Assembly (NCBI GenBank): GCA_963707285.1
Contig: CAVPPA010000005.1
Location: 66,180 to 130,179 of the forward strand
From: an uncultured Candidatus Saccharibacteria bacterium
GTDB taxonomy: Bacteria > Patescibacteriota > Saccharimonadia > Saccharimonadales > UBA4665
Length of the DNA: 64,000 nucleotides
Reading direction: 5' to 3'
In this document: positions 4,657 to 64,000 of the stretch, piece by piece
How the letters are laid out: each line of letters begins with the position of its first letter
Position numbering within the stretch: the stretch's first letter is position 1
Program-made: the position numbers and the translations under genes
Notes under the pieces: generated by a model
Database searches by the model: none
What the model was told of the DNA's origin: nothing
Seen by the model: the letters and a program-made list of their open reading frames with translations, nothing else

Positions 4657-4728
4657 AACTTTACAAAATATAGTATTGACGTATAGTTAATAATATACAA
4701 AGTATACCATAGAGGAGAATACCAGGTT

Positions 4729-5319: not shown

Positions 5320-5388
5320 GCCGCGTTTGACAGGGACGTTCTGGAGAATAACTCTTCTAGACATTCATCTTAAGATATAATCGAGCCC

Positions 5389-5958: not shown

Positions 5959-5997
5959 TTTATTAACCTGCCTAAGGAGTAGCCATTCTTTATGTAG

Positions 5998-6342: not shown

Positions 6343-6372
6343 TTAGGCTATGAACGGTTATTCTAATTTGTT

Positions 6373-7011: not shown

Positions 7012-7116
7012 ATCCTTATTTAATCATAAGCGATGAGAGCGTACCACGTTGCTTCGCTTTCGCTACGTCAGTAGATAGAAAGTCTTACAGCGTAAATAGC
7101 GTACAATATCCTTACA

Positions 7117-8865: not shown

Positions 8866-8869
8866 TTTT

Positions 8870-10003: not shown

Positions 10004-10032
10004 ATATATAGATTTTGAAAAAGGATCTTTAC

Positions 10033-10638
10033 TTGAAAATAAACCTAATCGGTATCGCTGGAACCAACGGCTCGGGCAAAGATACGGTTGGCCAAGTATT
10101 AAATGAACAATCCAATTTCACATTTGTATCAGTTACCGATTCCTTGCGAACCGAGGCGAGACGACGGGGGATGGCAGAAGATAGAGCGGCGACTCGACTC
10201 ATTAGCGCGGAGTGGCGACGAAAATACGGTTTGGCGGTTTTAGTCGATAAAGTCTTAGAAGAATATAAGCCAAAAATTGAAAATGGCATTGGGTTATCTA
10301 TGGCATCACTTCGTCATCCTGCTGAAGCCGATCGAATACATGAACTAGGCGGTATAGTACTTTGGATAGATGCCGATCCACTGATTCGTTATAACCGAAT
10401 TCAAGCAAATGCTGCAGTGCGTAATCGGGCGGCTGCTGACAATATTACATTCGAGCAATTTATGAGCGACGAACAAGCTGAAATGCATCGATCTGGTGAT
10501 GACGCAACTCTGGATATGTCAGCCGTCAAAGCTAAAGCTGATCTGTCCATCATCAATAATTTTGATAGTAAAAAAGCTCTAGCCATAGAAGTAACTAAGC
10601 AGCTAAAGCAATTTTTAAAAGACGGTTCTGAAGAATAA
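10033..10638 (+). CDS. P-loop nucleoside/nucleotide kinase family protein
   Basis: N-terminal Walker A, GIAGTNGSGKDT. AAAGGA Shine-Dalgarno 7 nt upstream of TTG 10033; the ORF is open from 10015. Substrate unknown. Confidence 0.55.
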   Translation: MKINLIGIAGTNGSGKDTVGQVLNEQSNFTFVSVTDSLRTEARRRGMAEDRAATRLISAEWRRKYGLAVLVDKVLEEYKPKIENGIGLSMASLRHPAEADRIHELGGIVLWIDADPLIRYNRIQANAAVRNRAAADNITFEQFMSDEQAEMHRSGDDATLDMSAVKAKADLSIINNFDSKKALAIEVTKQLKQFLKDGSEE

Positions 10639-10649
10639 TCTTAATCAGT

Positions 10650-13481
10650 TCAAATCTGAACGAATGAGGCTTTGTGACTAATTTCTTTGTGAAGAGAAAT
10701 AATTGCTTTTCTGGTGTGTTTTCGGGTATGCCGCTGCAGCAAACGAATACCAAGGTATAAGCCGGCAGCCAGTATGGCCATCACCCAATCAACTAAACTT
10801 AATGGGCCAGCGTGGAAATAGGGTTGGATAACCGGGTTATACATTATATTGAAGATACAAAAGAGCGAGAGGCTAAAAGCAATTAGCAACTTTTTGTTGC
10901 TCCAAAGATAACGCGTAAAAAAGCTCTCATGTTCATCAGCCCTTACCAGTAATAGATTCATAAATTGACAGAGCACAAGCGTTAGATAGGTAAGTATGGT
11001 GGCTTCAGCATAAAGTTGGCTGCTTGTATCAATATAGGCTGCACCAATTCCGCGACGGGCGAAAAAGAATAGGAAATTGGCATAAGCGAGTAGCGCCGAG
11101 AGCAGGCCGAACATTAAGAATTCACGGACCGTATCACTGTTTAGGATGTGATCATTTAATCGTCGAGGTCGATCTTTCATGAGATTAGCTCGGGCTTTAT
11201 CCCAACCTAAGGCTGTTATCGGAAAAATTTGGGCAATTACGTCAATCGCCAAAATCTGTATGGCAGTAATAGCTAATGGGACATGGAAAAAAACTTGGCC
11301 GGCCAAACTCATTAAGATCGCGATCAATTCACTGGCATTATCGGTCATGGCACAGCGCGCTGCTTTTTTGACATTTATAAAGGTTAAGCGTCCTTGCTCA
11401 ATGGCGTGCACAAGCGTACTAAAACTGTCATCGAGAAGGACTATTTCGGAGGCGTCTTTTGCCACATCGGTACCAGTTTTACCCATGGCGACACCTATAT
11501 CTGCTCGCTTCAGCGCTGGCGCATCATTAATGCCATCTCCAGTTACAGCCACAACTAAGCCGCTATTTTTGGCAATCTCGACGATTCGGAGTTTATCTTC
11601 TGGTGAAGCACGCGAAAAAATAGCACCCCCTGCTTCAATTAGCTGTAGTATCTGGCTATCCGATAGGGCATTCAGTTCCTCAGTTACTACCAGTTTAACT
11701 TCAGCTTCGGAAGAGGCCAGTTTAGCTTTAATTGCGATGGCTTCAGCGGTAGCAGGAAAATCACCGGTTACAACCGAGACAGCTACGTGCGCGTTACGAG
11801 CAATCGTCATTGCGGCTGGGACATCATCGCGTAGCGGATCACTCATGCTGACCATACCCAAAAACGTTAAGTTTTGCTCGACATTATTCATGGAAAGTTT
11901 TTTTAGATCCGTTGTGTCTGGCAGGATTCGGTAAGCAAAAGCCAAGTTACGCATGCTCTTTTTTGCTTCGGATTTATTATGAGTCGTAAAAAAAGTCTGG
12001 TCTGCTACCGTTAATTTACGGACATGGCCGTGGTCCCACAGTTTGACACTGTGTTCTAAAACTGCTTCCGGTGCTCCTTTTACAAATACCAGCACCTGAT
12101 CGCCAGATCGACGAACCGAACTCATCAACTTGCGGCCCGAGTCAAACTGAAATTCGCGAATTTCTTGATAGCTCAACAGCAATTTCTCGGTATTTAGACC
12201 GGCTTTTCGGGCGGCGGTAATAATTGCTCCTTCTGTTGGATCACCAATAACGTACCAGGTTCGGTGCTGTGAGTCGGGCTGGCTGACCTTAGCATTGCAG
12301 GCTAGCGCGCCGGTTATAAAAAAGAGTGAAATATCATCCAGATTTTTTTGGGTTAATGGTTTTTGATTGTTACTAACCACAGAGCCAATCGGTTCATAAC
12401 CAGTGCCGGTGATATGGTAGCTGGTCCGACCGATGATGGCATCGCTGACGGTCATTTCGTTTTTTGTTAATGTGCCCGTCTTATCGGTCAGGATAATGTT
12501 AGTAGCACCCAATGTTTCCACAGCGGAGAGTTTTTTAACGAGAGCCCGTGCTTTTGCCATACGACTTGCCGTTTGAGCAAGTGTAATGTTAACTTCAGCC
12601 ACTAATCCATTGGGAATCATGGCAGCGCTAATACCGATTGCAAAAAGCAATGCCGCTTTCAAACCAAGGTTGGCCTGGAGGGCAATAATAGCCAATAGGG
12701 CTGCCAAAATAAGCGTGCCTTGGGTTATGCGGGTGGCTAAATTATTCATTTCTTTTTGAAGCGGGGAAGGATCGACCCGAGTTACTTGACTCAACGATGC
12801 TATCCGGCCCAGTTCGGTATGCATCCCGGTTCCAACAACGATACCGTGAGCTGTACCAGTCGCTACCGTCGTACTCATAAAAGCTAAGTTATGTCGTGTA
12901 GGGAGTGGGACCATCGTCGAGATAGCATGAACAAATTTGCGGCTCGGACTACTTTCACCGGTTAAAGCGAAATCATTTGTACTCAGTTCGTCCTCGTCTA
13001 AAATGCGTATATCAGCCGGAACAGAGTCACCCTCTTCAATATAGACGATATCACCTAGGACTAATTTTGTGGCGTCGATATCTCTTAATGTGCCATTTCG
13101 TAGCACTTTGGCTCGTGAGACCATCAGACTCTCCAAATTCTCCATTAACGTTTCGGCTTTGTGCTCTTGGAAGAAACCAACGCCGGCATTCATGAGCGCA
13201 ATGAGGAGTAAGATAGTGGCAGTTTTACTGTCTTGCAAATAGAAAGCGAAAGCGGCACTGACGAGCAGCATAACCACAAAAAGACTTTTAAATTGACGCA
13301 AAAATGTAATTAATACCGACTCGTGGTGGGCATGATACAAAGCGTTTGGTCCATGTTGCTCTAAGCGACGAGCCGCATCAGGGTTGGTGAGACCCATTTT
13401 ATGGCTGCGTAATTCAGTTATGACGTCATTAGGCGTCATGCGGTAATAATTCAAGCGTTTATCGGAGCCCACCGTATTCAT
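10650..13481 (-). CDS. cation-transporting P-type ATPase (P2-type, Ca2+/Mg2+-like)
   Basis: 943 aa with phosphorylation motif DKTGTLT, hinge VTGDGINDAPALK, TGES and about 10 TM segments. Confidence 0.88.
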   Translation of the reverse strand: MNTVGSDKRLNYYRMTPNDVITELRSHKMGLTNPDAARRLEQHGPNALYHAHHESVLITFLRQFKSLFVVMLLVSAAFAFYLQDSKTATILLLIALMNAGVGFFQEHKAETLMENLESLMVSRAKVLRNGTLRDIDATKLVLGDIVYIEEGDSVPADIRILDEDELSTNDFALTGESSPSRKFVHAISTMVPLPTRHNLAFMSTTVATGTAHGIVVGTGMHTELGRIASLSQVTRVDPSPLQKEMNNLATRITQGTLILAALLAIIALQANLGLKAALLFAIGISAAMIPNGLVAEVNITLAQTASRMAKARALVKKLSAVETLGATNIILTDKTGTLTKNEMTVSDAIIGRTSYHITGTGYEPIGSVVSNNQKPLTQKNLDDISLFFITGALACNAKVSQPDSQHRTWYVIGDPTEGAIITAARKAGLNTEKLLLSYQEIREFQFDSGRKLMSSVRRSGDQVLVFVKGAPEAVLEHSVKLWDHGHVRKLTVADQTFFTTHNKSEAKKSMRNLAFAYRILPDTTDLKKLSMNNVEQNLTFLGMVSMSDPLRDDVPAAMTIARNAHVAVSVVTGDFPATAEAIAIKAKLASSEAEVKLVVTEELNALSDSQILQLIEAGGAIFSRASPEDKLRIVEIAKNSGLVVAVTGDGINDAPALKRADIGVAMGKTGTDVAKDASEIVLLDDSFSTLVHAIEQGRLTFINVKKAARCAMTDNASELIAILMSLAGQVFFHVPLAITAIQILAIDVIAQIFPITALGWDKARANLMKDRPRRLNDHILNSDTVREFLMFGLLSALLAYANFLFFFARRGIGAAYIDTSSQLYAEATILTYLTLVLCQFMNLLLVRADEHESFFTRYLWSNKKLLIAFSLSLFCIFNIMYNPVIQPYFHAGPLSLVDWVMAILAAGLYLGIRLLQRHTRKHTRKAIISLHKEISHKASFVQI

Positions 13482-13563: not shown

Positions 13564-16227
13564 ATGCCCGACTTATCAGAGAAGCGTAAGAAGTTCGTCA
13601 TTATTGACGGTAAGAGCGTATTTTACCGCGGTTATTTTGCCATGCCGAATTTGACGACTAAAGAGGGGACACCAACTGGTGGAGTATTCGGTTTCGCCAC
13701 TATGGCACTGGAAGTCATCCGACGCCTTAGACCAGATTATGTGGCTGTGGCGTGGGACAAGCCTAAAACGAATATACGCCGACGTCTCCAGCTATACCCT
13801 GAATATAAGGCTGGACGCAAACCGCCACCGCCGGACTTCTATGAACAAATACCCATTCTTCAGGAACTCTTAAAAGCGTTTGGTTGGCCACTTTATGAAA
13901 TGGATGACTATGAAGCCGACGACATTATGGGAACACTAGCGCTACAGGCTACCAAAAAAGGTATTGAATCGCTACTAGTTACGAGCGATCTAGATATGTT
14001 ACAGCTAATTGATCCTCACGTGCACGTCTTTGCTTTAAAGCACGGCCTAAGCAACATTGAACTTTATTCACCGGAAAGTTTTGAGACAAAATACGGACTG
14101 AAAGTCGACCAATTTTTAGATTTTAAATCACTCAAAGGCGATTCATCTGACAATATACCGGGTGTACCAGGTATCGGTGAAAAAAAAGCGATTGAACTCT
14201 TGAAGCAATATAGAACGTTGGATGGTATTTATAAGAATCTTAAAGACATTAATCCAAGTCTTCGAGCAAAACTTGAGGCAGGCAAAAAATCGGCTGAACT
14301 GAGTAAGGAATTAGCTCGAATTTGGACTGATGCGCCGCTTACACTCAATCTAACAGAAGTAGACGGCAGCAAGCTGCAACCGACAAAATTACTGGAGCTA
14401 CTACAGAAATTAGAATTCCGAACCCTAGCACGCCAATTGCCTGAAGTCATGCAAGTTGCAACCAGCGAAGTCACGAATTTGCAGACTAGCCAACAGCACT
14501 TGAAAATCGGTCACAGCGTAGTTGTTGACAGCGACCATAAACTGGCTTCACTTAAACTAAACAGCTCTAAACAGCTTTTTGTTTATTCATGGTCGAAAGC
14601 TCCCCATGGCAATGAACCACTAATGTTGTTGCTAAGCCCAGATGGTGTTGTTGTCTATGCCCTGGATCTGACAAAACTTTCATCTCAGTCTATCGTCAAA
14701 CAATTATCGGGTATGGCACCAGTTGTAGGTTATGACGTTAAAGCGACTCTTCAAATTCTATTGGCATTAGGAATTGAAGCATTACCGGCCGTTGGTTATG
14801 ATGTGCTAATAGGGGCTTTTATACTTAATTCTTTGCGACGAGAACAAACCTTGACTGAACTTGCCTCAGCCGATCTGCACTACCACGAGACACCATTTGA
14901 ACAGATTGAGCCAGTCGACTTTTTATCACGGGCACCCGAAATTATAGCCGTCATAAAAGCGCTCTATGACCAGCAGTTAAAAGAACTTCACTCTATTCCA
15001 AAACTTACTGACCTAGCTACCCGAGTTGACTGGCCAGTCATACCCGTTTTGGCTCGAATGGAGTATATCGGTATAAAGCTTGACAGTGCATACCTTAAGC
15101 AGATGAGCATAGAATTTGATGCTTTAATTACCGATATAGAAGGTCAGATATTTACTAATGCCGGCACGACATTTAATATTGGCAGCCCCAGTCAATTGGC
15201 CGAGATTTTATTTCAAAAGTTACATTTGTCTACCAGTGGAATAAAAAAAGGCAAAACCAGCTTCAGCACTGCCGCTAGCGAACTCGATAAATTGCGCGGT
15301 CAACATCCGATTATCGAACTAATTACGCAATGGCGAGAAGTCACCAAGCTTAAAAATACCTATGTTGATACGCTTCCTTTAATGGTAGATAAAAATTCTC
15401 GATTGCATACCACATTTAATCTGACTATTGCCCAAACCGGTAGATTGTCCAGTACTGATCCTAATCTGCAAAATATACCTGTTCGAACCGATCTGGGCCG
15501 AAAAATTCGGACGGCTTTTGTAGCCTCTCCAGGCAATAAGCTAGTTAGCGCTGATTACAGCCAGTTTGAGCTTCGACTCAGTGCCGCTATGAGCCAGGAC
15601 AAAGAACTGATCGATATGTTCAATCGGGACGTTGACGTTCATACAGCCACGGCCGCGTTGGTCTATGGACGCGAACTTGAGGATGTCACAAAACAGATGC
15701 GACGTGTTGCTAAAGTAGTTAATTTTGGCATTCTTTACGGCATGAGCCCACACGGTCTTTCGATCGCAACTGGTATGACTTATGAACAAGCTCAACGTTT
15801 CATTGCCGAATACACGGCTATTCGTAAACCGTTGATCACCTATTTAGAGAGCCTGAAGGAGCGAGCCGTCAAAGACGGCTATGTCGAAACTTTACTGGGT
15901 CGTCGGCGACCTATGCCTGATATACACTCGACTAATTTTATAGTTCGTTCAGCTGCCGAGAGGGCAGCTATGAATATGCCAATTCAAGGCACCGAAGCCG
16001 ATCTAATGAAAATTGCTATGACGAAATTGGATAAATTATTGCAGGCGCGTCACGATAACGCCCGAATGCTACTGCAAATTCATGATTCAATCTTAGTTGA
16101 ATGCTCTGGAGACGCTGCCGAGTCAGTTGCCGCCCAACTTAAGGACACGATGGAAAATATTTATCCGGAACTTCCCGTTAAACTGACCGTTGATACCAGC
16201 ATCGGCAATAATTGGGGTGAGATATAA
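13564..16227 (+). CDS. polA: DNA polymerase I
   Basis: 5'-nuclease domain, then motif A DYSQFELR, motif B KVVNFGILYGMS and motif C QIHDSILVE. The 3'-5' exonuclease Exo motifs look degenerate. TATACT at 13551-13556 lies 7 nt upstream of the ATG. Confidence 0.92.
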   Translation: MPDLSEKRKKFVIIDGKSVFYRGYFAMPNLTTKEGTPTGGVFGFATMALEVIRRLRPDYVAVAWDKPKTNIRRRLQLYPEYKAGRKPPPPDFYEQIPILQELLKAFGWPLYEMDDYEADDIMGTLALQATKKGIESLLVTSDLDMLQLIDPHVHVFALKHGLSNIELYSPESFETKYGLKVDQFLDFKSLKGDSSDNIPGVPGIGEKKAIELLKQYRTLDGIYKNLKDINPSLRAKLEAGKKSAELSKELARIWTDAPLTLNLTEVDGSKLQPTKLLELLQKLEFRTLARQLPEVMQVATSEVTNLQTSQQHLKIGHSVVVDSDHKLASLKLNSSKQLFVYSWSKAPHGNEPLMLLLSPDGVVVYALDLTKLSSQSIVKQLSGMAPVVGYDVKATLQILLALGIEALPAVGYDVLIGAFILNSLRREQTLTELASADLHYHETPFEQIEPVDFLSRAPEIIAVIKALYDQQLKELHSIPKLTDLATRVDWPVIPVLARMEYIGIKLDSAYLKQMSIEFDALITDIEGQIFTNAGTTFNIGSPSQLAEILFQKLHLSTSGIKKGKTSFSTAASELDKLRGQHPIIELITQWREVTKLKNTYVDTLPLMVDKNSRLHTTFNLTIAQTGRLSSTDPNLQNIPVRTDLGRKIRTAFVASPGNKLVSADYSQFELRLSAAMSQDKELIDMFNRDVDVHTATAALVYGRELEDVTKQMRRVAKVVNFGILYGMSPHGLSIATGMTYEQAQRFIAEYTAIRKPLITYLESLKERAVKDGYVETLLGRRRPMPDIHSTNFIVRSAAERAAMNMPIQGTEADLMKIAMTKLDKLLQARHDNARMLLQIHDSILVECSGDAAESVAAQLKDTMENIYPELPVKLTVDTSIGNNWGEI

Positions 16228-16242
16228 AAACTACATTAATAT

Positions 16243-16680
16243 TTAGGTGCTATGTCGACGGCGGCTACGAACTTTAACTATTCGTCCACCTTTGGCTCGC
16301 GCTAAACGCCAAGCCAAAACAATGACCCAAAGCGCTATAAGACAAGAAGCCAGATTAGTTATCCGCTCAAGAAGACTTAGAGCATGTTGCGTATCGTATA
16401 GGTAAATAAGAGCCGCTAAAGCTTCGGCAGCAATTAGGAATTTCGCCAGACGGCTACTCCGCCTTTCCTGAGCGGCATACCCAAGTACGAGCAAGAATCC
16501 CAAGGCAAAGATTATCAAAATAACAAGTATCAGAGAAACCAAAGCGTTACTAATACAACTGGCATTAAAACCACTCGTACAGCCACCAATAATGGCAACA
16601 ATTGTCGTTAAGAATGTCAAAATAATTGTCGCGATAAATTGAATTAGGGTAGCCACACCAGTTTCATAGCGTAAATGCAT
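16243..16680 (-). CDS. hypothetical integral membrane protein
   Basis: 4-TM ORF. TACAAT (minus strand, 16688-16693) lies 7 nt upstream of ATG 16680; the ORF is open to 16722. Confidence 0.5.
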   Translation of the reverse strand: MHLRYETGVATLIQFIATIILTFLTTIVAIIGGCTSGFNASCISNALVSLILVILIIFALGFLLVLGYAAQERRSSRLAKFLIAAEALAALIYLYDTQHALSLLERITNLASCLIALWVIVLAWRLARAKGGRIVKVRSRRRHST

Positions 16681-18550: not shown

Positions 18551-19480
18551 ATGGTTACGACGCTTTCGGGAGGAAATAGTTACGCTCTTCAATCAGAACT
18601 TCAAAAATTGGTGAGCGAGTTTGTGGCGACTCACAGCGACATCGCTGTCGAGCGCTTAGAAGGTAAAGAAGCTGATTTTGACCGCATACGTGAGAGCTTG
18701 CAAAGTACACCATTTTTAGCGAGCCGAAAATTAGTTGTACTACGTAATCCCAGTGACAATAAAATATTTGTAAATCAAGCCGAGCAACTGTTGAAAGAGC
18801 TGCCAGAATCGACTGACGTAATACTAGTGGAGCCAATTCTAGATAAGCGATTGAGCTATTACAAGCTATTAAAAAAAGCGACAATATTTCATGAATTCAC
18901 TGAACCCGATCAATCAGGACTTGAGCGGTGGCTCAACGAAACTATTCAAAAAGGTGGTGGCTCGATAAATCCAAGCGAGGCGCGTTTCTTGGTCGAACGC
19001 GTCGGTATAAATCAACAACGATTGGCCCACGAGTTAGATAAATTGTTGTTATACGATCCGAAAATCACACACGATACGATTATGTTACTGACCGACCCTA
19101 CGCCACAAAGTACCATTTTCGATCTCCTCGACACAGCTTTTAACGGTAATAGCAAACGGACTTTGGAGCTTTATCGTGACCAACGTGAGCAGAAAGTCGA
19201 CATGTCTCAGATAATTGCTATGCTGACATGGCAACTGAGAATAATTGCCTTAATCAAAACAGCAGCTGGAAGAACTTTTGAAAATATAATTAAGGAAGCA
19301 AAGCTCAATCCATATACCGTTCGTAAAAGTCAGACAGCTGCTAGCCGCATTACGTTTGATCAGCTTAAAAAACTTATAACTGATTTGCTTCTCATAGATA
19401 TGCGTTCAAAACGAGAGAATATCGATCTTGATGAAGCCTTGCAGCTATTTTTACTAAACATTGCCTCATCGAAAGCCTAA
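18551..19480 (+). CDS. holA: DNA polymerase III subunit delta
   Basis: 309 aa with HolA-like organisation. TATAAT at 18538-18543 lies 7 nt upstream of the ATG. Confidence 0.7.
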   Translation: MVTTLSGGNSYALQSELQKLVSEFVATHSDIAVERLEGKEADFDRIRESLQSTPFLASRKLVVLRNPSDNKIFVNQAEQLLKELPESTDVILVEPILDKRLSYYKLLKKATIFHEFTEPDQSGLERWLNETIQKGGGSINPSEARFLVERVGINQQRLAHELDKLLLYDPKITHDTIMLLTDPTPQSTIFDLLDTAFNGNSKRTLELYRDQREQKVDMSQIIAMLTWQLRIIALIKTAAGRTFENIIKEAKLNPYTVRKSQTAASRITFDQLKKLITDLLLIDMRSKRENIDLDEALQLFLLNIASSKA

Positions 19481-53351: not shown

Positions 53352-54266
53352 CTAAACGTTTTTATGGTGATATTGTTCGTAGACCTTTTTTAGATGCTGA
53401 TCTGTTACATGGGTATAGATCTGGGTGGTACTGATATCACTATGTCCAAGCATGACCTGGACTGACCTGAGATCTGATCCGTTCATTAGAAGATCGGTCG
53501 CAAAACTGTGCCTTAAAACGTGGGGATGAACATGTTTAGTTATCCCTGCTAACTGGGCATAACGATTGACTAGACGCTGGACCGATCTAGCCGTTAATCT
53601 TTTAAAGTTTCCAGTTCTATCAACTTTTTGACTGCCGCTATAGCGAATAAATAGCGGACTCATGGCATCGTTTCGCTTTTGTAGATAATTTTCAATCCAC
53701 TGGGCGGCTTCAGCACTAATAAATACCGGCCTGTCTTTTTGACCTTTACCACGGACGGTAAATTCCCGAAGTTTAAGGTTAATATGATCTCGATCAAGTT
53801 TTACGAGTTCTGATACTCTTAAACCTGAACTAAATAAAAGTTCTAGTATAGCTCGATCTCGCATCCCAATTAAACTAGTCATATCCGGTTGTTTAAAAAG
53901 TCTACTCAGTTCTTCATTATTGAGAAAGGTGACTTGCTTTCGGTGTACCCGAGCTAGTTCAATTTTTTCGGCCGATAGGGCAGGGATGTTTCGTTTGGCG
54001 CAAAATTTTAAAAAACTTCTCAGTGCAATCAAATGATAATTAACCGTTATTCGTTGTAGCTCATCGGAAGTATTAGTGCCGAGTCGATTGAGCCATAAGC
54101 GCCATTTACGAACTAATTCATCATCGATTTCGTCAACTTTAATTTCACCTGCAAAATCAGCTAATCTGGTTAAGTAATGGTCATAATTAGCAATTGTTTT
54201 TTGGGAACGGTTCTGTTCAATCTCTAAATGTTCTAAGAAATCAGTTTTTGCTTTAGTGAATAACAT
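53352..54266 (-). CDS. tyrosine recombinase XerC/XerD family
   Basis: Catalytic R..HxxR..Y set (RHSFATDLL, LGHSDISTTQIYTHV). TGTTATAAT (minus strand) lies 6 nt upstream of ATG 54266; the ORF is open to 54347. Confidence 0.85.
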   Translation of the reverse strand: MLFTKAKTDFLEHLEIEQNRSQKTIANYDHYLTRLADFAGEIKVDEIDDELVRKWRLWLNRLGTNTSDELQRITVNYHLIALRSFLKFCAKRNIPALSAEKIELARVHRKQVTFLNNEELSRLFKQPDMTSLIGMRDRAILELLFSSGLRVSELVKLDRDHINLKLREFTVRGKGQKDRPVFISAEAAQWIENYLQKRNDAMSPLFIRYSGSQKVDRTGNFKRLTARSVQRLVNRYAQLAGITKHVHPHVLRHSFATDLLMNGSDLRSVQVMLGHSDISTTQIYTHVTDQHLKKVYEQYHHKNV

Positions 54267-54371
54267 AAGCGAATTATAACATTGTGCGACATAACTAGGG
54301 TCATTGCTGATGTCGTTCTGATCTGTTAGAATAGCAACAACTAGCAACTAACATGAGGTTCTTGCATTTTT

Positions 54372-56886: not shown

Positions 56887-56963
56887 GGGCTCGTAGTGAA
56901 GAGGCCTATCACGTCTCCCTGTCACGGAGAAGATCGCCGGTTCGAATCCGGTCGGGCCCGCCA
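56887..56963 (+). tRNA. tRNA-Asp (anticodon GUC), CCA encoded
   Basis: Manual fold: acceptor GGGCTCG/CGGGCCC, D arm GTGA-AGAGGCCTA-TCAC, anticodon arm TCTCC-CTGTCAC-GGAGA, T arm GCCGG-TTCGAAT-CCGGT and discriminator G plus CCA. Confidence 0.9.
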
Positions 56964-57015
56964 AGCATAAGAATTTTCAATCTATTCTTCGAGTTGATTT
57001 TGATAAGATAATCCC

Positions 57016-57273
57016 ATGCATATTAATGACTGGCGAGACATTGTACTTGCCATAAGCTTCGCAGTCTTTAATATCGCACTTATTCCATCAATTATTAGTA
57101 AACATAAGCCTGCTTTAGGTACGAGCTTAGTTACAGCTACATTCCTAATACCTGGGCTGGTAGTCTACATTAGCCTCTCTCTATGGTATTCCGCTATTAT
57201 GACGGCGATAAACATTAGTCTTTGGACAACCTTATCTATTCAACGCTACCTACAATCCAAGAATGAGGGCTAA
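57016..57273 (+). CDS. small 3-TM membrane protein (PQ-loop/SemiSWEET-like, tentative)
   Basis: 85 aa. The segment SKHKPALGTSLVTATFL resembles SKSAIGNSLVTWSFFAL of the 61371 gene. Confidence 0.45.
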   Translation: MHINDWRDIVLAISFAVFNIALIPSIISKHKPALGTSLVTATFLIPGLVVYISLSLWYSAIMTAINISLWTTLSIQRYLQSKNEG

Positions 57274-57286
57274 TGCTCTGTAATAA

Positions 57287-57320
57287 AATAATTCCACACC
57301 TGTTCAGCTAAGGTCCGCCA
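57287..57320 (+). repeat. island upstream element, motif A copy 1
   Basis: AATAATTCCACACCTGTTCAGCTAAGGTCCGCCA ends 1 nt upstream of the -35 TTGACT. Confidence 0.85.
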
Positions 57321-57321
57321 T

Positions 57322-57350
57322 TTGACTAAATACTACTTTTATGGTAGTAT
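57322..57350 (+). promoter_or_regulatory. sigma70-type promoter of the 57370 gene
   Basis: TTGACT, 17-nt spacer, TAGTAT. Confidence 0.55.
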
Positions 57351-57369
57351 TTTTTATTGGAATAATAAA

Positions 57370-58638
57370 ATGAACAATCAAACTAATAATGAAATAAATC
57401 CAGCCTTGCCTGAGTTGTTTAACTCAAGTGAGTTTCTGAATGACCAGCAATTGAGCACCCTAATTGGCGGTATTGGTAACAACGAAGGGAAAGCCCTTTT
57501 GTTAGTGGCTATGGCAACCGGGGGTAGCGCGTATACATCACGTCCCTTGCATGGGCTGATAACTGGTCTTCCAGGTATGGATAGCGTAGAGGCCGGAAGC
57601 ATCTATACACAAAAAGGTTGGTGTCAGTCATCCATAGGGCCAGCTGGCTTAGTTGAGAACCACGGTTCAGATGGGACTCAAGTAACATCGCTGGGGTTAA
57701 GGCTTGGGGTTCCCCTTGCTGGGTTATTGCTTAATCATGCCGATAAATATGACGTACCGCTCGTAGAGTTATTCGGCGAAACTCGTTCAAGTTCAGAAGT
57801 GCCCTCTCAATTTATAAGACTTAGGATAATGGAAGAGCTCCTGACACATCCAGGGGGGATGCAATTAGGTGATTTAGTTACCTCAACCTATGCATCAAAT
57901 CAAGTTGTAATTGAAAAACAATTAAGGAAGTTAGCAAATGCGGACTTGATTACCTACGATGACTGGGATAGTGCAACATGCCAGATCAGATACGAGGTTC
58001 CATCAGAAAGTCGAAGTAGTTTAGCGGACAAGGCAGGTTTTACCGGGACAATCGCTGAATATCTATTGCAAGCGTCTGAGACGTCTCACGATCAAGTTGT
58101 TAACTATTGCATACAGACAGTGCCAGGATTTAACCAACTTGACCCTAGAGCTCAAAGTGCCAAGGTTTCGGTGGTCATGTTTAATTTAAAGCGTCAGGGA
58201 TTAGTGCAAAAACTTGAGGGCAAAGAACGACCTTTTGAACTTGATGTCTCGTTAACCCCCGAACAATTAGAACAGTGGACCGATTTATGCAATAAACTGG
58301 AGTCTTTCAAGAATCAGGAGCCAGAAGTTTTAGCTAAATGGACTAAGGTAGCTTTTGATTTTATTACCGATCCTGCTAAAGTTAGGCGCGCCTATGAACG
58401 CTTTCGTGACAGCTCTGCTAGGGCGAATCATATTGAAAAAAACTTAGGTAGTATTGTTCTAAATGCTTTACAAGATAGTGGTGGCTCTGCTTCAGTTCGT
58501 GAAGTAGTGAAACTAGCCTCAGACAGACGTGGTAATTCTGTATCGCACTTTGGGGTCGTGAGGGTATTAAACCATCTAGCCGCCGAAGGATTGGTAAACA
58601 GACACCAAGATAAGGTGGTGATGTTTAGCAAGCGCTAA
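57370..58638 (+). CDS. hypothetical protein with at least two winged-helix-like segments
   Basis: About 423 aa from ATG 57370; the longer TTG-started ORF from 57322 would overlap its own promoter. wHTH-like stretches IRLRIMEELLTHPGGMQLGDLV...LRKLANADLITY and VLNALQDSGGSASVREVV...VLNHLAAEGLVNRH. Confidence 0.45.
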   Translation: MNNQTNNEINPALPELFNSSEFLNDQQLSTLIGGIGNNEGKALLLVAMATGGSAYTSRPLHGLITGLPGMDSVEAGSIYTQKGWCQSSIGPAGLVENHGSDGTQVTSLGLRLGVPLAGLLLNHADKYDVPLVELFGETRSSSEVPSQFIRLRIMEELLTHPGGMQLGDLVTSTYASNQVVIEKQLRKLANADLITYDDWDSATCQIRYEVPSESRSSLADKAGFTGTIAEYLLQASETSHDQVVNYCIQTVPGFNQLDPRAQSAKVSVVMFNLKRQGLVQKLEGKERPFELDVSLTPEQLEQWTDLCNKLESFKNQEPEVLAKWTKVAFDFITDPAKVRRAYERFRDSSARANHIEKNLGSIVLNALQDSGGSASVREVVKLASDRRGNSVSHFGVVRVLNHLAAEGLVNRHQDKVVMFSKR

Positions 58639-58686
58639 ATGGCTTCGGTCTCTGGTAAAAAGACTCTTCTAAAGCTTCCTTTAAAA

Positions 58687-58720
58687 AATAATTCCACACC
58701 TGTTCCGCTAAGGTCCGCCA
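58687..58720 (+). repeat. island upstream element, motif A copy 2
   Basis: AATAATTCCACACCTGTTCCGCTAAGGTCCGCCA is 33/34 identical to copy 1 and ends 3 nt upstream of the -35 TTGACA. Confidence 0.85.
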
Positions 58721-58723
58721 TAA

Positions 58724-58752
58724 TTGACATATAGTTGCTAATATGCTATTGT
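58724..58752 (+). promoter_or_regulatory. sigma70-type promoter of the 58760 gene (leaderless)
   Basis: TTGACA, 17-nt spacer, TATTGT. The ATG is 7 nt downstream. Confidence 0.5.
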
Positions 58753-58759
58753 TTAAGAT

Positions 58760-59143
58760 ATGACTACAATAGATTCACAAGCTTTTAATGCACCTGAATT
58801 ACCGTCTGATTTCGATTTGAGTCGTCGTAAGGAAATTGCTCAGGTTCTAGGCATAACACTATTCGAACCTACTAACCTATATGATCACTATCTTATAATT
58901 ACGCCTAATGGTAACCAGCATCTTGAATCTGGGACAACCCTCCAGTCTCTTAGAGAAGAAGGTTTGTCGGATGAAGCTATTGGCGAAAGATTAGAGCAAG
59001 TACTTACCGAACGTAGGGCAAGACTGAGCAATGATTTATTGAAAGCAATTCTGATGTATGATGATGCCAGAGACCCTGATTATTACTTAAATGATCTTCT
59101 TCCCGAACCACCGTTCGGACTTATAGATGGGGTTGATTACTAG
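58760..59143 (+). CDS. hypothetical protein
   Basis: 127-aa acidic soluble ORF with its own promoter. No recognised domain. Confidence 0.45.
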   Translation: MTTIDSQAFNAPELPSDFDLSRRKEIAQVLGITLFEPTNLYDHYLIITPNGNQHLESGTTLQSLREEGLSDEAIGERLEQVLTERRARLSNDLLKAILMYDDARDPDYYLNDLLPEPPFGLIDGVDY

Positions 59144-59174
59144 ATAAACTAAGGATCTATCCTATTATTTAGTT

Positions 59175-59208
59175 ACAATTCTAAAATCCAACTCTAGATC
59201 CCGCCAAT
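59175..59208 (+). repeat. island upstream element, motif B copy 1
   Basis: ACAATTCTAAAATCCAACTCTAGATCCCGCCAAT shares the 18-mer TTCTAAAATCCAACTCTA with 60568-60585. Confidence 0.8.
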
Positions 59209-59230
59209 TAGATACCTTTAAACGATTAAT

Positions 59231-59258
59231 TTGACTGTTGTAACCTTACTAATATAAT
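59231..59258 (+). promoter_or_regulatory. sigma70-type promoter of the 59300 gene
   Basis: TTGACT, 16-nt spacer, TATAAT. Confidence 0.55.
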
Positions 59259-59299
59259 CATAAACAATATTACATATTTCATTGAAAGGTAACACGAAC

Positions 59300-59830
59300 A
59301 TGCGATTTAAGAATAATGGATCAAACAAGGGTGGTTTTATAGACCATACCGCTTTAGTGATTATTGTAGTAGGGGTAGCAATATTAGGTAGTTTCTATTT
59401 GGTTGCAACTCATGCCGCCACTAAAACAGCCGTAATTTTTAGTAACTACCAAACTGCAGTTGATCACAGTTCGAGCACGACCGTAACTTCAAGCTCTGTT
59501 TCAACATTAGATAGTAATCAAAACGTCGTTAGTTTATCTGAAAATCAAAAAGCAGATTTTACCCCATTAAAGGGTGGCGGTGGCTGGTATGACATATCTA
59601 CATGTTACTTCCTAGCGGCACCTGATGGTAATGTTACGGCTCTAATCGGTAACGAATCTGCAACCCTTCAAGTACATGTTGCCCAAAGCCTTAGTTATTA
59701 TGCGAAATATTGTCTTAATGCTCCTAGTTCATCTGGTAGCTATACTAACGATACAGTTGAAAATCTTTCAAGTACTCCCCTATACATCTATCAAGCCGAG
59801 CTGAACTCAGCTTGCAAAACGATGTGTTAA
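59300..59830 (+). CDS. hypothetical secreted/membrane-anchored Cys-containing protein
   Basis: ATG 59300 follows AAAGG. N-terminal TM (ALVIIVVGVAILGSFYLVA), an S/T-rich linker and a C-terminal domain with four Cys. Confidence 0.45.
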   Translation: MRFKNNGSNKGGFIDHTALVIIVVGVAILGSFYLVATHAATKTAVIFSNYQTAVDHSSSTTVTSSSVSTLDSNQNVVSLSENQKADFTPLKGGGGWYDISTCYFLAAPDGNVTALIGNESATLQVHVAQSLSYYAKYCLNAPSSSGSYTNDTVENLSSTPLYIYQAELNSACKTMC

Positions 59831-59863
59831 AAAAGATATCAAAATCTACACACTAGTTAATAT

Positions 59864-59897
59864 AATAATTCCACACCCGTTCAGCTAAGGTCCGCCA
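59864..59897 (+). repeat. island upstream element, motif A copy 3
   Basis: AATAATTCCACACCCGTTCAGCTAAGGTCCGCCA is 33/34 identical to copy 1. A partial CCACACCC recurs at 59921-59928. Confidence 0.85.
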
Positions 59898-59978
59898 ATA
59901 ATCCGCAATTTGTTATTTTGCCACACCCAAACCGGATGTTAGAACTATTTTTGTAGACTAGTCTGTTACCGCTCATGC

Positions 59979-60007
59979 TTGCTATGATGGTACTTCAGAC
60001 CTAGAAT
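59979..60007 (+). promoter_or_regulatory. sigma70-type promoter of the 60015 gene (leaderless)
   Basis: TTGCTA, 17-nt spacer, TAGAAT. The ATG is 7 nt downstream. Confidence 0.5.
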
Positions 60008-60014
60008 TGTTTAA

Positions 60015-60548
60015 ATGGAAAAATTACCCTCCGCAGTTACTAAGCTTGAAAAAGCAGGCATACTAGATATGGTATATGCAAGAATTGCGATCAGAAAAAT
60101 AAGAAATGCCGTAATGGACATTGAAGTTCCCAGATTAATTGATAATTTGGATTTCTGTGTAAGACAATCAAGAGATGTAAGTGCTGTCCTCGAAGAGTAT
60201 CGTAAACGATATGGTTATAGTCCTCACTTAATACCCAGAACTAATGTTAGTCTTTGGAAATCTTCAGATGAAGTGGGTTTATTTTATGGGAGCTCAAACG
60301 GATTAGAATATAGATCTCATAGATTCAGATTTAATTTTAATAGTGGGGGTGGAGTTCAGTATCATAGAGAAGCATATAATGTTGATTTTCAAGCTATGGG
60401 GTCTCAGCCTGTTAATTTAGCTTCTTTAAAAGAAATAGCTAGTCATTCGCAAGCAATAATTGAATTACGTTGGTTGGCATCTCAGATTGCTGGCAAACCG
60501 CCTAATAGTTGGCGTGACGGACCCCCTATTTCCACAGTGGCTTGTTAG
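60015..60548 (+). CDS. hypothetical protein
   Basis: 177-aa soluble ORF with no recognised domain. Confidence 0.45.
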   Translation: MEKLPSAVTKLEKAGILDMVYARIAIRKIRNAVMDIEVPRLIDNLDFCVRQSRDVSAVLEEYRKRYGYSPHLIPRTNVSLWKSSDEVGLFYGSSNGLEYRSHRFRFNFNSGGGVQYHREAYNVDFQAMGSQPVNLASLKEIASHSQAIIELRWLASQIAGKPPNSWRDGPPISTVAC

Positions 60549-60562
60549 AAGATACTTATCGT

Positions 60563-60591
60563 AATTGTTCTAAAATCCAACTCTAAACCCC
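60563..60591 (+). repeat. island upstream element, motif B copy 2
   Basis: AATTGTTCTAAAATCCAACTCTAAACCCC. Confidence 0.8.
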
Positions 60592-60606
60592 ATAAATGAT
60601 GCTTTA

Positions 60607-60635
60607 TTGACTAATAATCAATCTTATGATATTAT
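60607..60635 (+). promoter_or_regulatory. sigma70-type promoter of the 60692 gene
   Basis: TTGACT, 17-nt spacer, TATTAT, with TGA immediately upstream of the -10. Confidence 0.55.
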
Positions 60636-60691
60636 GTATTTAAGATATATTATCTTCTTTAATAATAAAAAGCTAGGATAGAAAGCACAAA

Positions 60692-61216
60692 ATGTCAGAT
60701 TCAGAAACATCGCCACTACAGACTGCTCCTCTAGAGCAAATTACAACCGAACAGGCAACAGAGGCAGGTCGAAATTTTGAAGAACTTTTGGGTAAAAATC
60801 CAAACATAACAGATGTTGTTGTTCTGGTAGGCATACGTGGTCGTAAGAAGCTTGTTCAACAGGAAACGGTTGAGTTTGTGGCAGGTAATTCAAAACTTGT
60901 AGTTGCCCGAAATAGCAATAGTCCAAGAGTAGGAGCCGCACTTTTAAAGAAGGTCACGCAAAGCGAAAGCAACAGTGGCTGGGAAATCTCAGATCAATTC
61001 TTGTTTGATACAACCCAGGGAAGCGTTCTTCGTCTGGGTAGGGATGAATCCGATAAACCCCTTAAATTAGGTGCATTTACACCATTTAACGAAACAGGAA
61101 AAGGTACGCTAGAGACGTTTTTAAGTTCTACGAAAAGTGTCATTGAGGCTAGTAAACGCCCGGGCGCAAGGATTCGAAGCGTAGCTCAAAAAGCTGGTCG
61201 TCTGGTCAGCCATTAA
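60692..61216 (+). CDS. hypothetical protein
   Basis: 174-aa soluble ORF with no recognised domain. Confidence 0.45.
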   Translation: MSDSETSPLQTAPLEQITTEQATEAGRNFEELLGKNPNITDVVVLVGIRGRKKLVQQETVEFVAGNSKLVVARNSNSPRVGAALLKKVTQSESNSGWEISDQFLFDTTQGSVLRLGRDESDKPLKLGAFTPFNETGKGTLETFLSSTKSVIEASKRPGARIRSVAQKAGRLVSH

Positions 61217-61294
61217 AATTCTTGGATTATAATTAATTATTTTATTGTTCACTGCTCTATAATCTATCTTAACTTGATTTAAAAGTTACTAGGT

Positions 61295-61328
61295 ATTAGG
61301 TCCACATCACCAAAGCTAACATCCGCCA
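61295..61328 (+). repeat. island upstream element, degenerate motif A copy 4
   Basis: ATTAGGTCCACATCACCAAAGCTAACATCCGCCA shares about 22/34 positions with motif A, including TCCACA, AGCTAA and TCCGCCA. Confidence 0.55.
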
Positions 61329-61370: not shown

Positions 61371-61673
61371 ATGAGTCGCACATCCTTGTTGCACTTGAGA
61401 AGTAAAGGCAAGCTTGAGAATTACATCTTATATAAAGTCATTTTAGTTATTGCTTTTATCGAACCACTTACGACATCGGGACAAATATATCAAATCTGGA
61501 AGTCGAAAAGTGCCATAGGTAATTCTCTTGTTACATGGTCATTTTTTGCTTTATCTAGCATCATTTGGCTTTCCTATGGCATTAAAATAAAAAGTAAGCC
61601 ACTCATAATTAGCAGTTTATTATGGGCTATAACCGAATCAATAATTATTATCCAAATAATTTATTATTCGTAA
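61371..61673 (+). CDS. SemiSWEET/PQ-loop-like 3-TM membrane protein
   Basis: 100 aa. SGQIYQIWKSKSAIGNSLVTWSFFALSSIIWLSYGI resembles the MtN3/PQ-loop signature. TGTTAGTAT lies 7 nt upstream of the ATG. Confidence 0.5.
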   Translation: MSRTSLLHLRSKGKLENYILYKVILVIAFIEPLTTSGQIYQIWKSKSAIGNSLVTWSFFALSSIIWLSYGIKIKSKPLIISSLLWAITESIIIIQIIYYS

Positions 61674-62727: not shown

Positions 62728-62873
62728 TGAAGAAGATATTTTCTATTCAATTAATTTCAGAATATCGGTTAATAATCACCAGGTATTAGACATAAAAGAG
62801 CGGTCTATTGAGTATTTCTGTTATTGTAAGGGTATGTGAAAGTGCTTTAATGGGCTTTATGAGAGGAGCATAT

Positions 62874-63092
62874 ATGGCAAAAGTTGAATCAAATAGTCGA
62901 ATTTATAAAACAAAGTACGTTACAAAAAATGGCGGCGCCGGAGGATTATGGTTATTAGGATTTATTGGCACCTTTATTTATTATATACAAGTTCATTCCG
63001 GCACTTTTTGGTTGGTAGTCCTGGCCTTTTTAAAAGCAATTATCTGGCCGGCAATTATGGTATATCATCTTTTCCTTTTCCTAAAAGTTTAA
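62874..63092 (+). CDS. small 2-TM membrane protein
   Basis: ATG 62874 follows a GAGGAG Shine-Dalgarno at 5-nt spacing; the ORF is open from 62808. Hydrophobic helices GGLWLLGFIGTFIYYI and FWLVVLAFLKAIIWPAIMVY. Confidence 0.45.
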   Translation: MAKVESNSRIYKTKYVTKNGGAGGLWLLGFIGTFIYYIQVHSGTFWLVVLAFLKAIIWPAIMVYHLFLFLKV

Positions 63093-63184
63093 CGTTTTAA
63101 AGAGTTTCTAGTCTATAGTTACCAAATAATTTTGTCAAAAATTACGCTTGAAAAACCTCGATTAAATAATGCTATGCTAGACGC

Positions 63185-64000
63185 ATGACTAGACAACAAA
63201 GGCTTGTATTAATTGTTAGTATTTTGGCGTCTTTTGTAGCCTTTCTGGATAGTTCAGTTATAAATGTAGCATTACCGGCTATAAGCCGTAATTTGGGCGG
63301 AGGTTTAGTAACACAACAGTGGGTAGTCGATGCTTATCTTATAACTTTAGGATCTCTTATACTACTTGCCGGATCGTTATCTGACTTATTTGGTCGTAAA
63401 CGCATATTAACTAGTGGTCTAATAGGATTCGCGGCTTCATCAATTTTATGTGCTATTTCGCCTGATAGTACATTTTTAATTATTGCTAGGGCATTACAAG
63501 GAGTTGCCGGAGCTCTTCTAGTTCCAAGCTCACTCGCTATGATTATCTCAAACTTTTCTCACAAGACTCAGGGCAAGGCGATCGGTACTTGGACGGCGTG
63601 GACGGGCATATCTTTTATTATCGGTCCTTTACTTGGCGGATTCTTAGTGGATGCCGTTTCCTGGCGTTTAATTTTTGCGATAAATATTATACCTATTGCA
63701 GTTTGTTTGTGGTTGATAGACTTACTAGATACGGTTGAGCAGACTAAAAGAGTTAAAGTAGACACTTTGGGAGCCATATTATGTAGCTTTGGGCTTGGTG
63801 GTGCTGTATTTGGTCTGATTGAAGAGCAACATTTTGGTTGGGATAGCCCTATCATTTTTATGTCTTTAATATTAGGGTTTATTTTCTTAATAAGCTTTAT
63901 GTTTTATGAAAGTCGAAATTTAGAACCAATGTTACCGTTGTCCTTATTTAGGGTTCAAAATTTTCGATTTGGCAATATTGCAACTGCGGCTATTTACGGT
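63185..64000 (+). CDS. MFS transporter, DHA2 (EmrB/QacA-like) family, 3'-truncated by the window edge
   Basis: My translation from ATG 63185 reads MTRQQRLVLIVSILASFVAFLDSSVINVALPAIS...GSLSDLFGRKRI, which carries MFS motif A and the DHA2 signature. The frame is open to position 64000 and is absent from the ORF track because it has no stop. Confidence 0.8.
   Translation, partial: MTRQQRLVLIVSILASFVAFLDSSVINVALPAISRNLGGGLVTQQWVVDAYLITLGSLILLAGSLSDLFGRKRILTSGLIGFAASSILCAISPDSTFLIIARALQGVAGALLVPSSLAMIISNFSHKTQGKAIGTWTAWTGISFIIGPLLGGFLVDAVSWRLIFAINIIPIAVCLWLIDLLDTVEQTKRVKVDTLGAILCSFGLGGAVFGLIEEQHFGWDSPIIFMSLILGFIFLISFMFYESRNLEPMLPLSLFRVQNFRFGNIATAAIYG

Follow-up and report, generated by a model that had tools for sequence, protein, structure and literature searches.

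A 34-nucleotide repeat behind tRNA-Asp in a Saccharibacteria genome, best read as an attachment-site arm of integrating elements

Introduction

In staphylococcal cassette chromosome elements (SCC/SCCmec), large serine recombinases (LSRs) of the Ccr type build composite islands at the 3' end of rlmH, where they tolerate a variable right half-site. A locus that can be compared with these islands lies in a 64,000-nt stretch of a Candidatus Saccharibacteria contig (CAVPPA010000005.1), which is called the window below. A 34-nt repeat recurs there behind the gene of tRNA-Asp(GTC), in an array of one-gene cassettes. The family of this 34-mer, here the A-type site, is best read as the attR-like far-end junction (an element-side arm followed by a common core) of LSR-bearing elements that target tRNA-Asp; a second repeat family, the B-type site, is interleaved with it. 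Saccharibacteria have tiny genomes, and to our knowledge their gene gain and loss are little understood.

The likeness to SCC/SCCmec lies in the apparent serial integration at the 3' end of one conserved gene, in direct repeats that include the last bases of that gene, in the many units that carry no recombinase and would be served in trans, and in a target of which only the gene-side half is conserved. The locus differs in that the target is a tRNA gene and not rlmH, in that its units are 0.36–1.4 kb long with one gene each, in its host, a bacterium of the candidate phyla radiation (CPR), and in the weak similarity of the associated recombinase to CcrA and CcrB.

The attachment sites of the LSRs of A118/LI, Bxb1, phiC31 and SPbeta (PMC3783163) resemble those described here in the recombinase gene that stands beside the site, in the short common core and, it seems, in the longer element half-site: the T-loop-like RTTC, the presumed distal motif, is 4–6 bp further from the core in the sites than in the tRNA, compared with a shift of 5 bp in the LI integrase sites. 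Unlike in those systems, the target here is the 3' end of a tRNA, there is no significant pseudo-palindrome, and there are arrays of recombinase-less cassettes with unconserved right half-sites.

The tycheposons of Prochlorococcus mostly use tyrosine recombinases, with large serine recombinases in 27 of 937 (bioRxiv 10.1101/2020.12.28.424599). They too form a hypervariable island by a tRNA gene, with outward displacement of units and with scattered copies of attachment sites and remnants. Their repeats are partial tRNA copies, whereas the A-type site has only its last 7 nt in common with the tRNA and carries a conserved arm of its own; furthermore, the locus shows neither the hallmark tyrosine recombinase nor the replication genes of tycheposons, and its units are single genes with promoters of their own. 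Of the features that classically mark a tRNA-associated island, two are seen here, namely the abutment on the 3' end of a tRNA and the position of the repeats on its strand, but a tRNA copy of tens of nucleotides is not. B-type sites come nearer to such a copy than A-type sites, yet they carry 4–5 extra nucleotides.

The layout also recalls integrons (IntI, attI, attC), in which a fixed primary site is followed by same-strand, one-gene cassettes, each closed by a site. In both systems the cassettes carry no recombinase, their content differs between close relatives, and the cargo includes toxin–antitoxin genes (here a putative pair on the metagenome contig L006). Unlike in integrons, there is no IntI-type integrase and no attC fold with its single-stranded hairpin, the cassettes have promoter-like sequences of their own, and the primary site is a tRNA 3' end.

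The locus is thus set apart by a combination: an LSR, a tRNA 3'-end target, an arm that is not a tRNA copy, tiny cassettes with their own promoters, and a CPR host. Stacking of elements at a tRNA gene is already known; of an LSR-linked array of single-gene cassettes in CPR bacteria, no description was found in the literature on mobile elements of Saccharibacteria, Patescibacteria and the CPR, of which our coverage is incomplete.

Results

Six one-gene cassettes follow tRNA-Asp

Positions 56964–61328 of the window hold six one-gene units on the + strand behind tRNA-Asp(GTC), each closed by an A-type or a B-type site. The order is tRNA-Asp, ORF85, A1, ORF422, A2, ORF127, B1, ORF176, A3, ORF177, B2, ORF174, A4 (ORF, open reading frame, followed by the length of its product in residues), and each cassette starts directly 3' of ...CCGCCA. 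The parts are listed below.

56887–56963, + strand: tRNA-Asp(GTC), found by ARAGORN and Rfam (61.9 bits); its 3' end is ...GGTTCGAATCCGGTCGGGCCCGCCA
56964–57286, + strand: body of cassette 0, with the ORF of an 85-aa membrane protein (57016–57273) that has no Pfam match
57287–57320, + strand: A-type site, copy 1, AATAATTCCACACCTGTTCAGCTAAGGTCCGCCA; profile score 41.8 bits
57321–58686, + strand: body of cassette 1, with the promoter-like TTGACT-17-TAGTAT (57322–57350) and a 422-aa ORF (57370–58638)
58687–58720, + strand: A-type site, copy 2; profile score 40.2 bits
58721–59177, + strand: body of cassette 2, with the promoter-like TTGACA-17-TATTGT (58724–58752) and a 127-aa ORF (58760–59143) that has no Pfam match
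59178–59206, + strand: B-type site, copy 1, ATTCTAAAATCCAACTCTAGATCCCGCCA; repeat family D8, 29.5 bits, E = 1e-7
59207–59863, + strand: body of cassette 3, with the promoter-like TTGACT-16-TATAAT (59231–59258; 11 of 12 positions as in the consensus) and a 176-aa ORF (59300–59830)
59864–59897, + strand: A-type site, copy 3; profile score 38.6 bits
59898–60565, + strand: body of cassette 4, with leader module C (~59908–59947, TTGTTATTTTGCCACACCCAAACCGGATGTTAGAACTA), a palindrome (59955–59964) and a 177-aa ORF (60015–60548)
60566–60595, + strand: B-type site, copy 2, with a degenerate 3' end (...CTCTAAACCCCATAA); repeat family D8, 24.9 bits
60596–61294, + strand: body of cassette 5, with the promoter-like TTGACT-17-TATTAT (60607–60635) and a 174-aa ORF (60692–61216)
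61295–61328, + strand: A-type site, copy 4, degenerate, the last recognisable one and the farthest from the tRNA; 22.2 bits

The strongest promoter-like hexamers of the region stand directly after A1, A2, B1 and B2. No significant Pfam match is seen for any of the six cassette proteins, and they show no homology to one another.

A degenerate pattern search finds exact matches to the 34-mer AATAATTCCACACCYGTTCMGCTAAGGTCCGCCA at the first three A-type positions, all on the + strand; relative to copy 1, copies 2 and 3 have one changed base each. There are no further matches at up to 3 mismatches on either strand of the window, nor in any of 100 dinucleotide shuffles, which bears out the three copies at 33/34 identity of the original prediction. 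The degenerate fourth copy, for which about 22 of 34 bases had been claimed, is also real: 23 of its 34 bases agree with copy 1 (72% over 39 nt in a repeat search), and its nhmmer E-value of 2e-5 is partly circular, copy 4 having belonged to the training alignment. All four copies are intergenic, and comparison of sequences and proteins upholds the view that their flanks and neighbouring genes are unrelated. A CRISPR array had rightly been set aside, given the spacing of 1.2–1.4 kb with genes in between, and so had a terminator or a repetitive extragenic palindrome: the repeat has no fold, one orientation and one locus, which speaks against a MITE as well. Folding of the 34-mer DNA on both strands yields minimum free energies of -0.2 to -1.7 kcal/mol (z = +0.5 to +1.0 against shuffles), i.e. 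no hairpin, and an Rfam scan of the region returns no family but tRNA, even at E <= 1.

No copies were found past position 61328: the sequence that precedes copy 4 recurs at 62769–62789, but there it does not run into an element.

The sites end in the last seven nucleotides of tRNA-Asp

The conserved edge of the A-type site, its 3' end, repeats that of tRNA-Asp, which lies 323 nt upstream of copy 1 and ends in ...GGGCCCGCCA. The two have their last 7 nt, YCCGCCA, in common and agree in 18 of 34 positions overall. The site would consist of an element-side (P-type) arm of ~27 nt, AATAATTCCACACCTGTTCAGCTAAGG, followed by this common core. Between 56957 and 61322, YCCGCCA occurs six times on the + strand, namely at the tRNA end, in the four A copies and in B1, and only six more times in the rest of the 64-kb window, both strands counted. 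The tRNA-Asp 3' end would therefore be the primary attachment site (the left half of attB) and the anchor of the array.

The B-type site (TTCTAAAATCCAACTCTAGATCCCGCCA, also given as TTCTAAAATCCAACTCTARATCCCGCCA) likewise closes cassettes and resembles the stretch of tRNA-Asp from the T-loop to CCA. Outside the array, profile searches detect neither type at a significant level, be it in the remaining 56 kb of the window or in the upstream flanking DNA of related loci, and both types are confined to a single orientation and a single locus within the window. The sites become more degenerate with distance from the tRNA (rho = -0.94 with n = 6 for the window; rho = -0.37 with p = 0.046 for the pooled sites), a decay that is consistent with the entry of new units at the tRNA end and the outward displacement of older ones and gives this order of events weak support.

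A cassette is present and absent within one species

Named homologues of the upstream PpiC-type gene assign the window to Candidatus Saccharimonadales (CPR/Patescibacteria). Relatives of the locus (L014–L021) were chosen by a PpiC protein 72–81% identical to that of the window. Two of them, L014 and L017, carry an identical PpiC protein and belong to the same species. In L017 the tRNA end ...GGGCCCGCCA is directly joined to AGAAGTCAG (in longer form, ...GGTCGGGCCCGCCA joined to AGAAGTCAGTTATC). In L014 the same tRNA end is joined to GACCGAAC, which opens an insert of 731 bp; the insert closes in AAGGTCCGCCA, and AGAAGTCAG follows (the distal junction in longer form is ...GCTAAGGTCCGCCA joined to AGAAGTCAGTTATC). 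The insert consists of a gene for a 140-aa protein and two A sites, and the junction falls exactly in CCGCCA. This hexamer is the sole sequence that the junction partners in L014 and L017 have in common, and it is too short for the difference to be an assembly collapse. At 2951–3131 the L017 scaffold joins two alternative tRNA-Asp junctions across a run of N, one in which the Ldh cassette directly follows the tRNA and one in which the cassette of the 140-aa protein does; with two junctions in one scaffold, the sample appears to contain a mixed population.

Shared cassettes also differ in their place between loci. A glyoxalase cassette stands behind a B site in L014 and behind a truncated A site in L018, and a cassette with an 85-aa gene occupies differing array positions in these two loci.

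Related loci keep the flank and the sites, and differ in their genes

The upstream block is kept in the orthologous loci: type IV pilus genes, an Xer-like gene on the opposite strand, ndk, tRNA-Arg(CCT), a gene for a 197-aa protein, PpiC and tRNA-Asp. The four closest loci have an identical tRNA-Asp sequence, and L020 shows 2 changed positions within the stretch compared. On the 3' side of tRNA-Asp each related genome has its own set of genes, which include transporter and enzyme genes and are divided by the same A and B sites on the tRNA strand. The counts are:

L014: at least 5 A-type and at least 6 B-type sites
L018: 2 A-type and 3 B-type sites
L020: 1 A-type and 2 B-type sites

In L014 and L018, the B type is the commoner of the two. 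Wherever a significant copy of either type could be placed, it lies 3' of tRNA-Asp on the tRNA strand (the window, L012, L014, L018, L020, L022, L023 and L026).

The cassette-type A variant is 97–100% identical among the window, L014, L018 and an unrelated metagenome contig (L004/L006), compared with ~79% for the housekeeping DNA of the window and the L014 species. Such identity points to constraint or ongoing spread and not to common ancestry of spacer DNA, in line with the earlier suggestion of constraint by a protein recognition site or copying by recombination, either or both of which may apply.

In public DNA, the degenerate pattern TCCACANCNNNNNNGCTAANNTCCGCCA gives only 3 chance-level matches in unrelated phyla among the GTDB species genomes and none among viral contigs; among metagenome contigs it finds one true relative, assembled twice (L004/L006), and one chance match. 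The viral contigs likewise yielded 0 matches when scanned for the B-type site or the 3' end of tRNA-Asp, and neither GenBank phages nor PLSDB plasmids were matched when the whole array was compared with them by blastn.

The cassette proteins of the window show no homology to cassettes of other arrays, but a 94-aa ORF and a major facilitator superfamily (MFS) transporter gene beyond the array are shared with L018. Homologues of the 422-aa protein (69%, 61% and 36% identity) are found, respectively, in the tRNA-Arg array of L007, in the tRNA-Asp array of L012 and outside any array (L013). The L007 array (4545–11640) is an equivalent of that in the window behind a different tRNA, tRNA-Arg(GCG): its sites have a like architecture and end in ...ACACCA, as that tRNA does. 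It also holds true 3' fragments of the tRNA; the last 18 nt of the tRNA and ~55 nt of trailer are duplicated exactly, ~120 nt after the first copy. Each L007 site is followed by a terminator hairpin and then by a promoter, the sites standing between stop codon and hairpin.

Large serine recombinase elements sit between tRNA-Asp and an A-type site

In L020, L022, L023–25 and L026–29, the gene of a 515–522-aa LSR runs tail-to-tail into the tRNA-Asp 3' end, and the elements end 4.8–5.8 kb away in an A-type site on the tRNA strand that adjoins host DNA. The L020 gene lies directly after tRNA-Asp on the opposite strand and encodes a protein of 520 aa that has Resolvase and Recombinase domains; its last 13 codons run antisense through the tRNA 3' end, and the element closes 5.5 kb further on in AGTAATTCCACACCTCTAAAGCCACGGCCCGCCA. 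L012 begins in tRNA-Asp and retains a C-terminal remnant of the LSR and an A-type site 1.8 kb away (1811–1844). Counting this remnant, an LSR gene or what is left of one stands at tRNA-Asp in five other lineages.

The LSR family comprises 165 clusters at E <= 1e-30, and its named members belong to Saccharimonadales or Patescibacteria. Of four further members considered, the 3 whose DNA was examined (L022, L023–25 and L026–29) all show the arrangement of LSR, tRNA-Asp and A site. The protein has Resolvase, Recombinase and zinc-ribbon domains, and its residues 15–475 align to the SPbeta integrase over almost the full length. NCBIfam models match weakly (XisF, CcrB and CcrA), CcrA and CcrB with 30–42 bits against cut-offs of 700–900.

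In L022 (5673–11602) and L023 (5855–11605), tRNA-Asp and the LSR element are inverted relative to PpiC, unlike in the window, L020 and L026; this inversion may be recombinase-mediated. Elements and cassettes of these loci also carry a reverse transcriptase with a helix-turn-helix partner and a KAP-family NTPase (L023 6528–7809; L022 5756–8374), and a pair of small genes at 86–618 of L006 (- strand) is toxin–antitoxin-like by reading of the sequences alone. Such cargo is defence-like and fits a variable island.

Geometry of the sites

At their 5' end the sites carry a sequence that corresponds to the T-loop motif GTTCGAA of the tRNA: B-type sites have GTTCTAA or GTTCGAA there, and A-type sites ATTCCAC or GTTCCAC. 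The CCA end lies at the following distances from the first T of TTC.

tRNA-Asp and tRNA-Arg: 23 nt
B-type sites and sites of the tRNA-Arg array: 27–28 nt
A-type sites: 29 nt

The TTC of the sites is thus shifted by +4 to +6 nt relative to the tRNAs. In the sites of serine integrases, the motif bound by the zinc-ribbon domain is 5 bp closer to the middle of attB than of attP, whose half-sites extend over ~25 bp (PMC3783163). If the crossover is placed ~3–4 nt inside CCCGCCA, the half-sites would be ~20 bp (tRNA) and 25–26 bp (A and B). The shift agrees with the attP/attB rule, an agreement that is suggestive and not proof, the zinc ribbon being only presumed to contact the TTC motif. Two properties of LSR sites are seen: YCCGCCA is a common core of tRNA-Asp and the sites, with the L014/L017 junction inside it, and in the LSR elements of related genomes the recombinase gene stands beside the attachment site.

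Discussion

Probable attachment sites of tRNA-Asp-targeted elements

Judged from comparison of sequences, the 34-mer is quite probably the attachment-site arm of elements that target tRNA-Asp. Less secure, though favoured on balance, is the proposition that it is the LSR which acts on the copies of the cassette type. A circular element with an A- or B-type arm would recombine with the tRNA-Asp 3' end inside YCCGCCA; integration would regenerate the tRNA and leave arm and core at the element's distal end. Repeated integration would stack cassettes and displace older ones outward, which presupposes that serial insertion tolerates a variable right half-site. The enzyme would most likely be an LSR of the family that holds this position in related genomes. 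Since the cassettes of the window carry no recombinase, they would have been moved in trans by an enzyme encoded elsewhere, or would be products of recent events. The promoters that follow the repeat are accounted for in the same way, each cassette having its own promoter at its start.

Several points weigh against this interpretation. No LSR gene was found within the window, and neither a free circular form nor a phage with the site was found in the viral contig collection. Just one polymorphism resolved to the base was found, and the scaffold behind it (L017) is gapped. As a rule, LSR sites are pseudo-palindromes, but attP as reconstructed from an A site and the post-tRNA sequence has no significant dyad symmetry: the best ungapped dyad pairs 9–11 of 26 positions, which 59–98% of shuffles equal. 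Among the small cassettes, the DNA that follows CCGCCA on the right shows no conservation, and the right (P') half-site is not recognisable in them, so that standard LSR chemistry on these cassettes is unproven. Furthermore, attL is normally no substrate for a new attP once an LSR has integrated an element, and serial stacking therefore needs a relaxed requirement for the right half. Finally, a common core of 6–7 nt also suits a tyrosine recombinase.

A broader idea, to which we would give somewhat less than even odds, is that Saccharibacteria, and perhaps other CPR bacteria, possess an integron-like platform for gene capture that is run by an LSR. Its fixed acceptor would be a tRNA 3' end (that of tRNA-Asp, and of tRNA-Arg(GCG) in another lineage), and its cargo would be single-gene cassettes that have their own promoters and only an element-type half-site of ~30 nt (A or B), and that are inserted, excised and exchanged in trans. 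The locus does look like a dedicated variable region, close relatives being alike in the flanks and the tRNA and wholly different in their cassettes. If the platform exists, it would equip these host-dependent bacteria of ultra-small size with a dedicated hypervariable locus, and if the LSR moves the cassettes, it would be a second, mechanistically different answer to the task that integrons perform. The recombinase, the element site of ~34 nt and the conserved tRNA-Asp target could serve as a ready-made site-specific integration system for CPR bacteria; given the difficulty of their genetic manipulation, such a system is expected to be useful. In annotation, such repeats should be read as cassette boundaries and not as regulatory motifs.

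Alternative explanations

The alternative that survives best, although unlikely, is that the copies are sites of a tyrosine recombinase, in an integron-like or IMEX-like platform served by an Xer-like enzyme encoded 2.5 kb upstream (53352–54347, - strand). An identical core of 6–7 nt flanked by direct repeats is typical of a tyrosine-recombinase overlap region, single-gene cassettes on one strand recall integron arrays, and the Xer-like gene is kept in the neighbourhood of every tRNA-Asp locus examined. Its presence is uninformative, however, since it lies in the conserved housekeeping block, with ndk, two tRNAs, the gene for the 197-aa protein and PpiC between it and the array. The protein passes the NCBIfam model NF040815, 'site-specific tyrosine recombinase/integron integrase' (archaeal XerA), with 238 bits against a cut-off of 220, but it stays far below the integron-integrase model TIGR02249 (131 against 265 bits), and its best models are XerC, XerD and XerA. 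The A and B sites have no inverted-repeat arms and no attC-like fold. The equivalent array at tRNA-Arg in L007 has no Xer gene within 10 kb, and the sole recombinase seen inside complete elements that end in an A site is the LSR, in five lineages. A dif/Xer site proper was considered and ruled out: the GC skew shows no terminus here, and inverted arms are lacking. The Xer-like protein falls below the NCBIfam cut-offs for bacterial XerC and XerD, and it is syntenic at 85–89% identity in relatives.

It is improbable, too, that the copies are inert scars of past integration or local duplication whose near identity reflects recent origin only. Degenerate or truncated copies do exist (A4 and B2 in the window, 14169–14186 in L018 and several B* copies in L014), the quality of the sites falls with distance from the tRNA, and the window is without a recombinase. 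Scars of this kind would leave two things unexplained: the 97–100% identity of A sites across genomes despite unrelated cargo and surroundings, which calls for selection or horizontal spread, and the polymorphism, inside a single species, of a cassette whose junction lies at the site.

The original prediction had taken the repeat for an activator or UP-type site of the cassette promoters; the binder might be the 422-aa protein, which has weak matches of the winged helix-turn-helix type and homologues in other such arrays. This proposal fails and is given very little credence here. The hexamers it relied on are real for three of the copies: the strong promoter-like TTGACT and TTGACA begin 1 nt after copy 1 and 3 nt after copy 2, and the distance is 81 nt for copy 3, where the palindrome AGACTAGTCT is also present at 59955–59964 as described. 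For copy 4, no hexamer pair passed the scan, and the -35 hexamer implied for it would be TTATGT, which agrees with the consensus in 2 of 6 positions. The spacing is thus unfixed, with none that is convincing for copy 4; 34 near-perfect nucleotides are far longer and better conserved than ordinary operators; and B-type sites, though of another sequence, take up equivalent positions. Furthermore, the sharp conserved edge is the one common to the tRNA 3' end, the polymorphism junction falls at it, and in the LSR elements the site at the far end abuts host DNA with no cassette promoter next to it.

Least credible of all is an RNA-level tag, i.e. a tRNA-like 3' end in the 3' untranslated region of cassette mRNAs that serves processing, stability or priming: the sites do end in ...GCCA like the tRNA, B-type sites do resemble its T-loop-to-CCA stretch, and the L007 sites, lying between stop codon and terminator hairpin, are probably transcribed, but a complementary 5' strand and a stable fold are both lacking, the Rfam scan is empty, upstream flanks that might pair are unrelated between copies, and the DNA-level indel junction and the recombinase association would go unexplained. 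A tRNA 3' half or tRNA-like RNA was rejected as a candidate, T-arm or acceptor pairing not being drawable.

Other features of the arrays

Module C, a conserved stretch of ~40 nt (TGTTATTnTGCCACACCCAAACCGGATGTTAGAACTA), opens otherwise unrelated cassettes ~10–22 nt 3' of some A or B sites. In L014 it occurs three times (~13660–13700, 14376–14416 and 16452–16490), in the same position after an A or B site. Its CCACACC block is a motif of the A site repeated in the same orientation, and the module could be a leader or promoter that these cassettes have in common, or else one more site that has decayed.

On the minus-strand reading of L006, A-like sites at ~1055–1114 and 1–85 have their halves split by an insert; one insert is 29 nt long and contains the hairpin TTCGCTGGTCAGCGAA, and the other is longer. 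These may be decayed sites or a longer variant of the site.

Just past the array of the window, the 94-aa ORF and the MFS transporter gene (62808–63999) are adjacent. In L018 the corresponding genes (12863–13153 and 18598–19433) are 5.4 kb apart, with the 94-aa gene flanked by B-type sites; given this arrangement, the variable region of the window may once have extended beyond 61328.

The array is bracketed by two small membrane proteins, encoded at 57016–57273 and 61371–61673. The second, 100 aa long, has a sub-threshold match to MtN3/SemiSWEET (E = 1e-4, 22.5 bits against a cut-off of 23.7), and the two proteins show a weak mutual similarity over 25 aa (E = 0.009).

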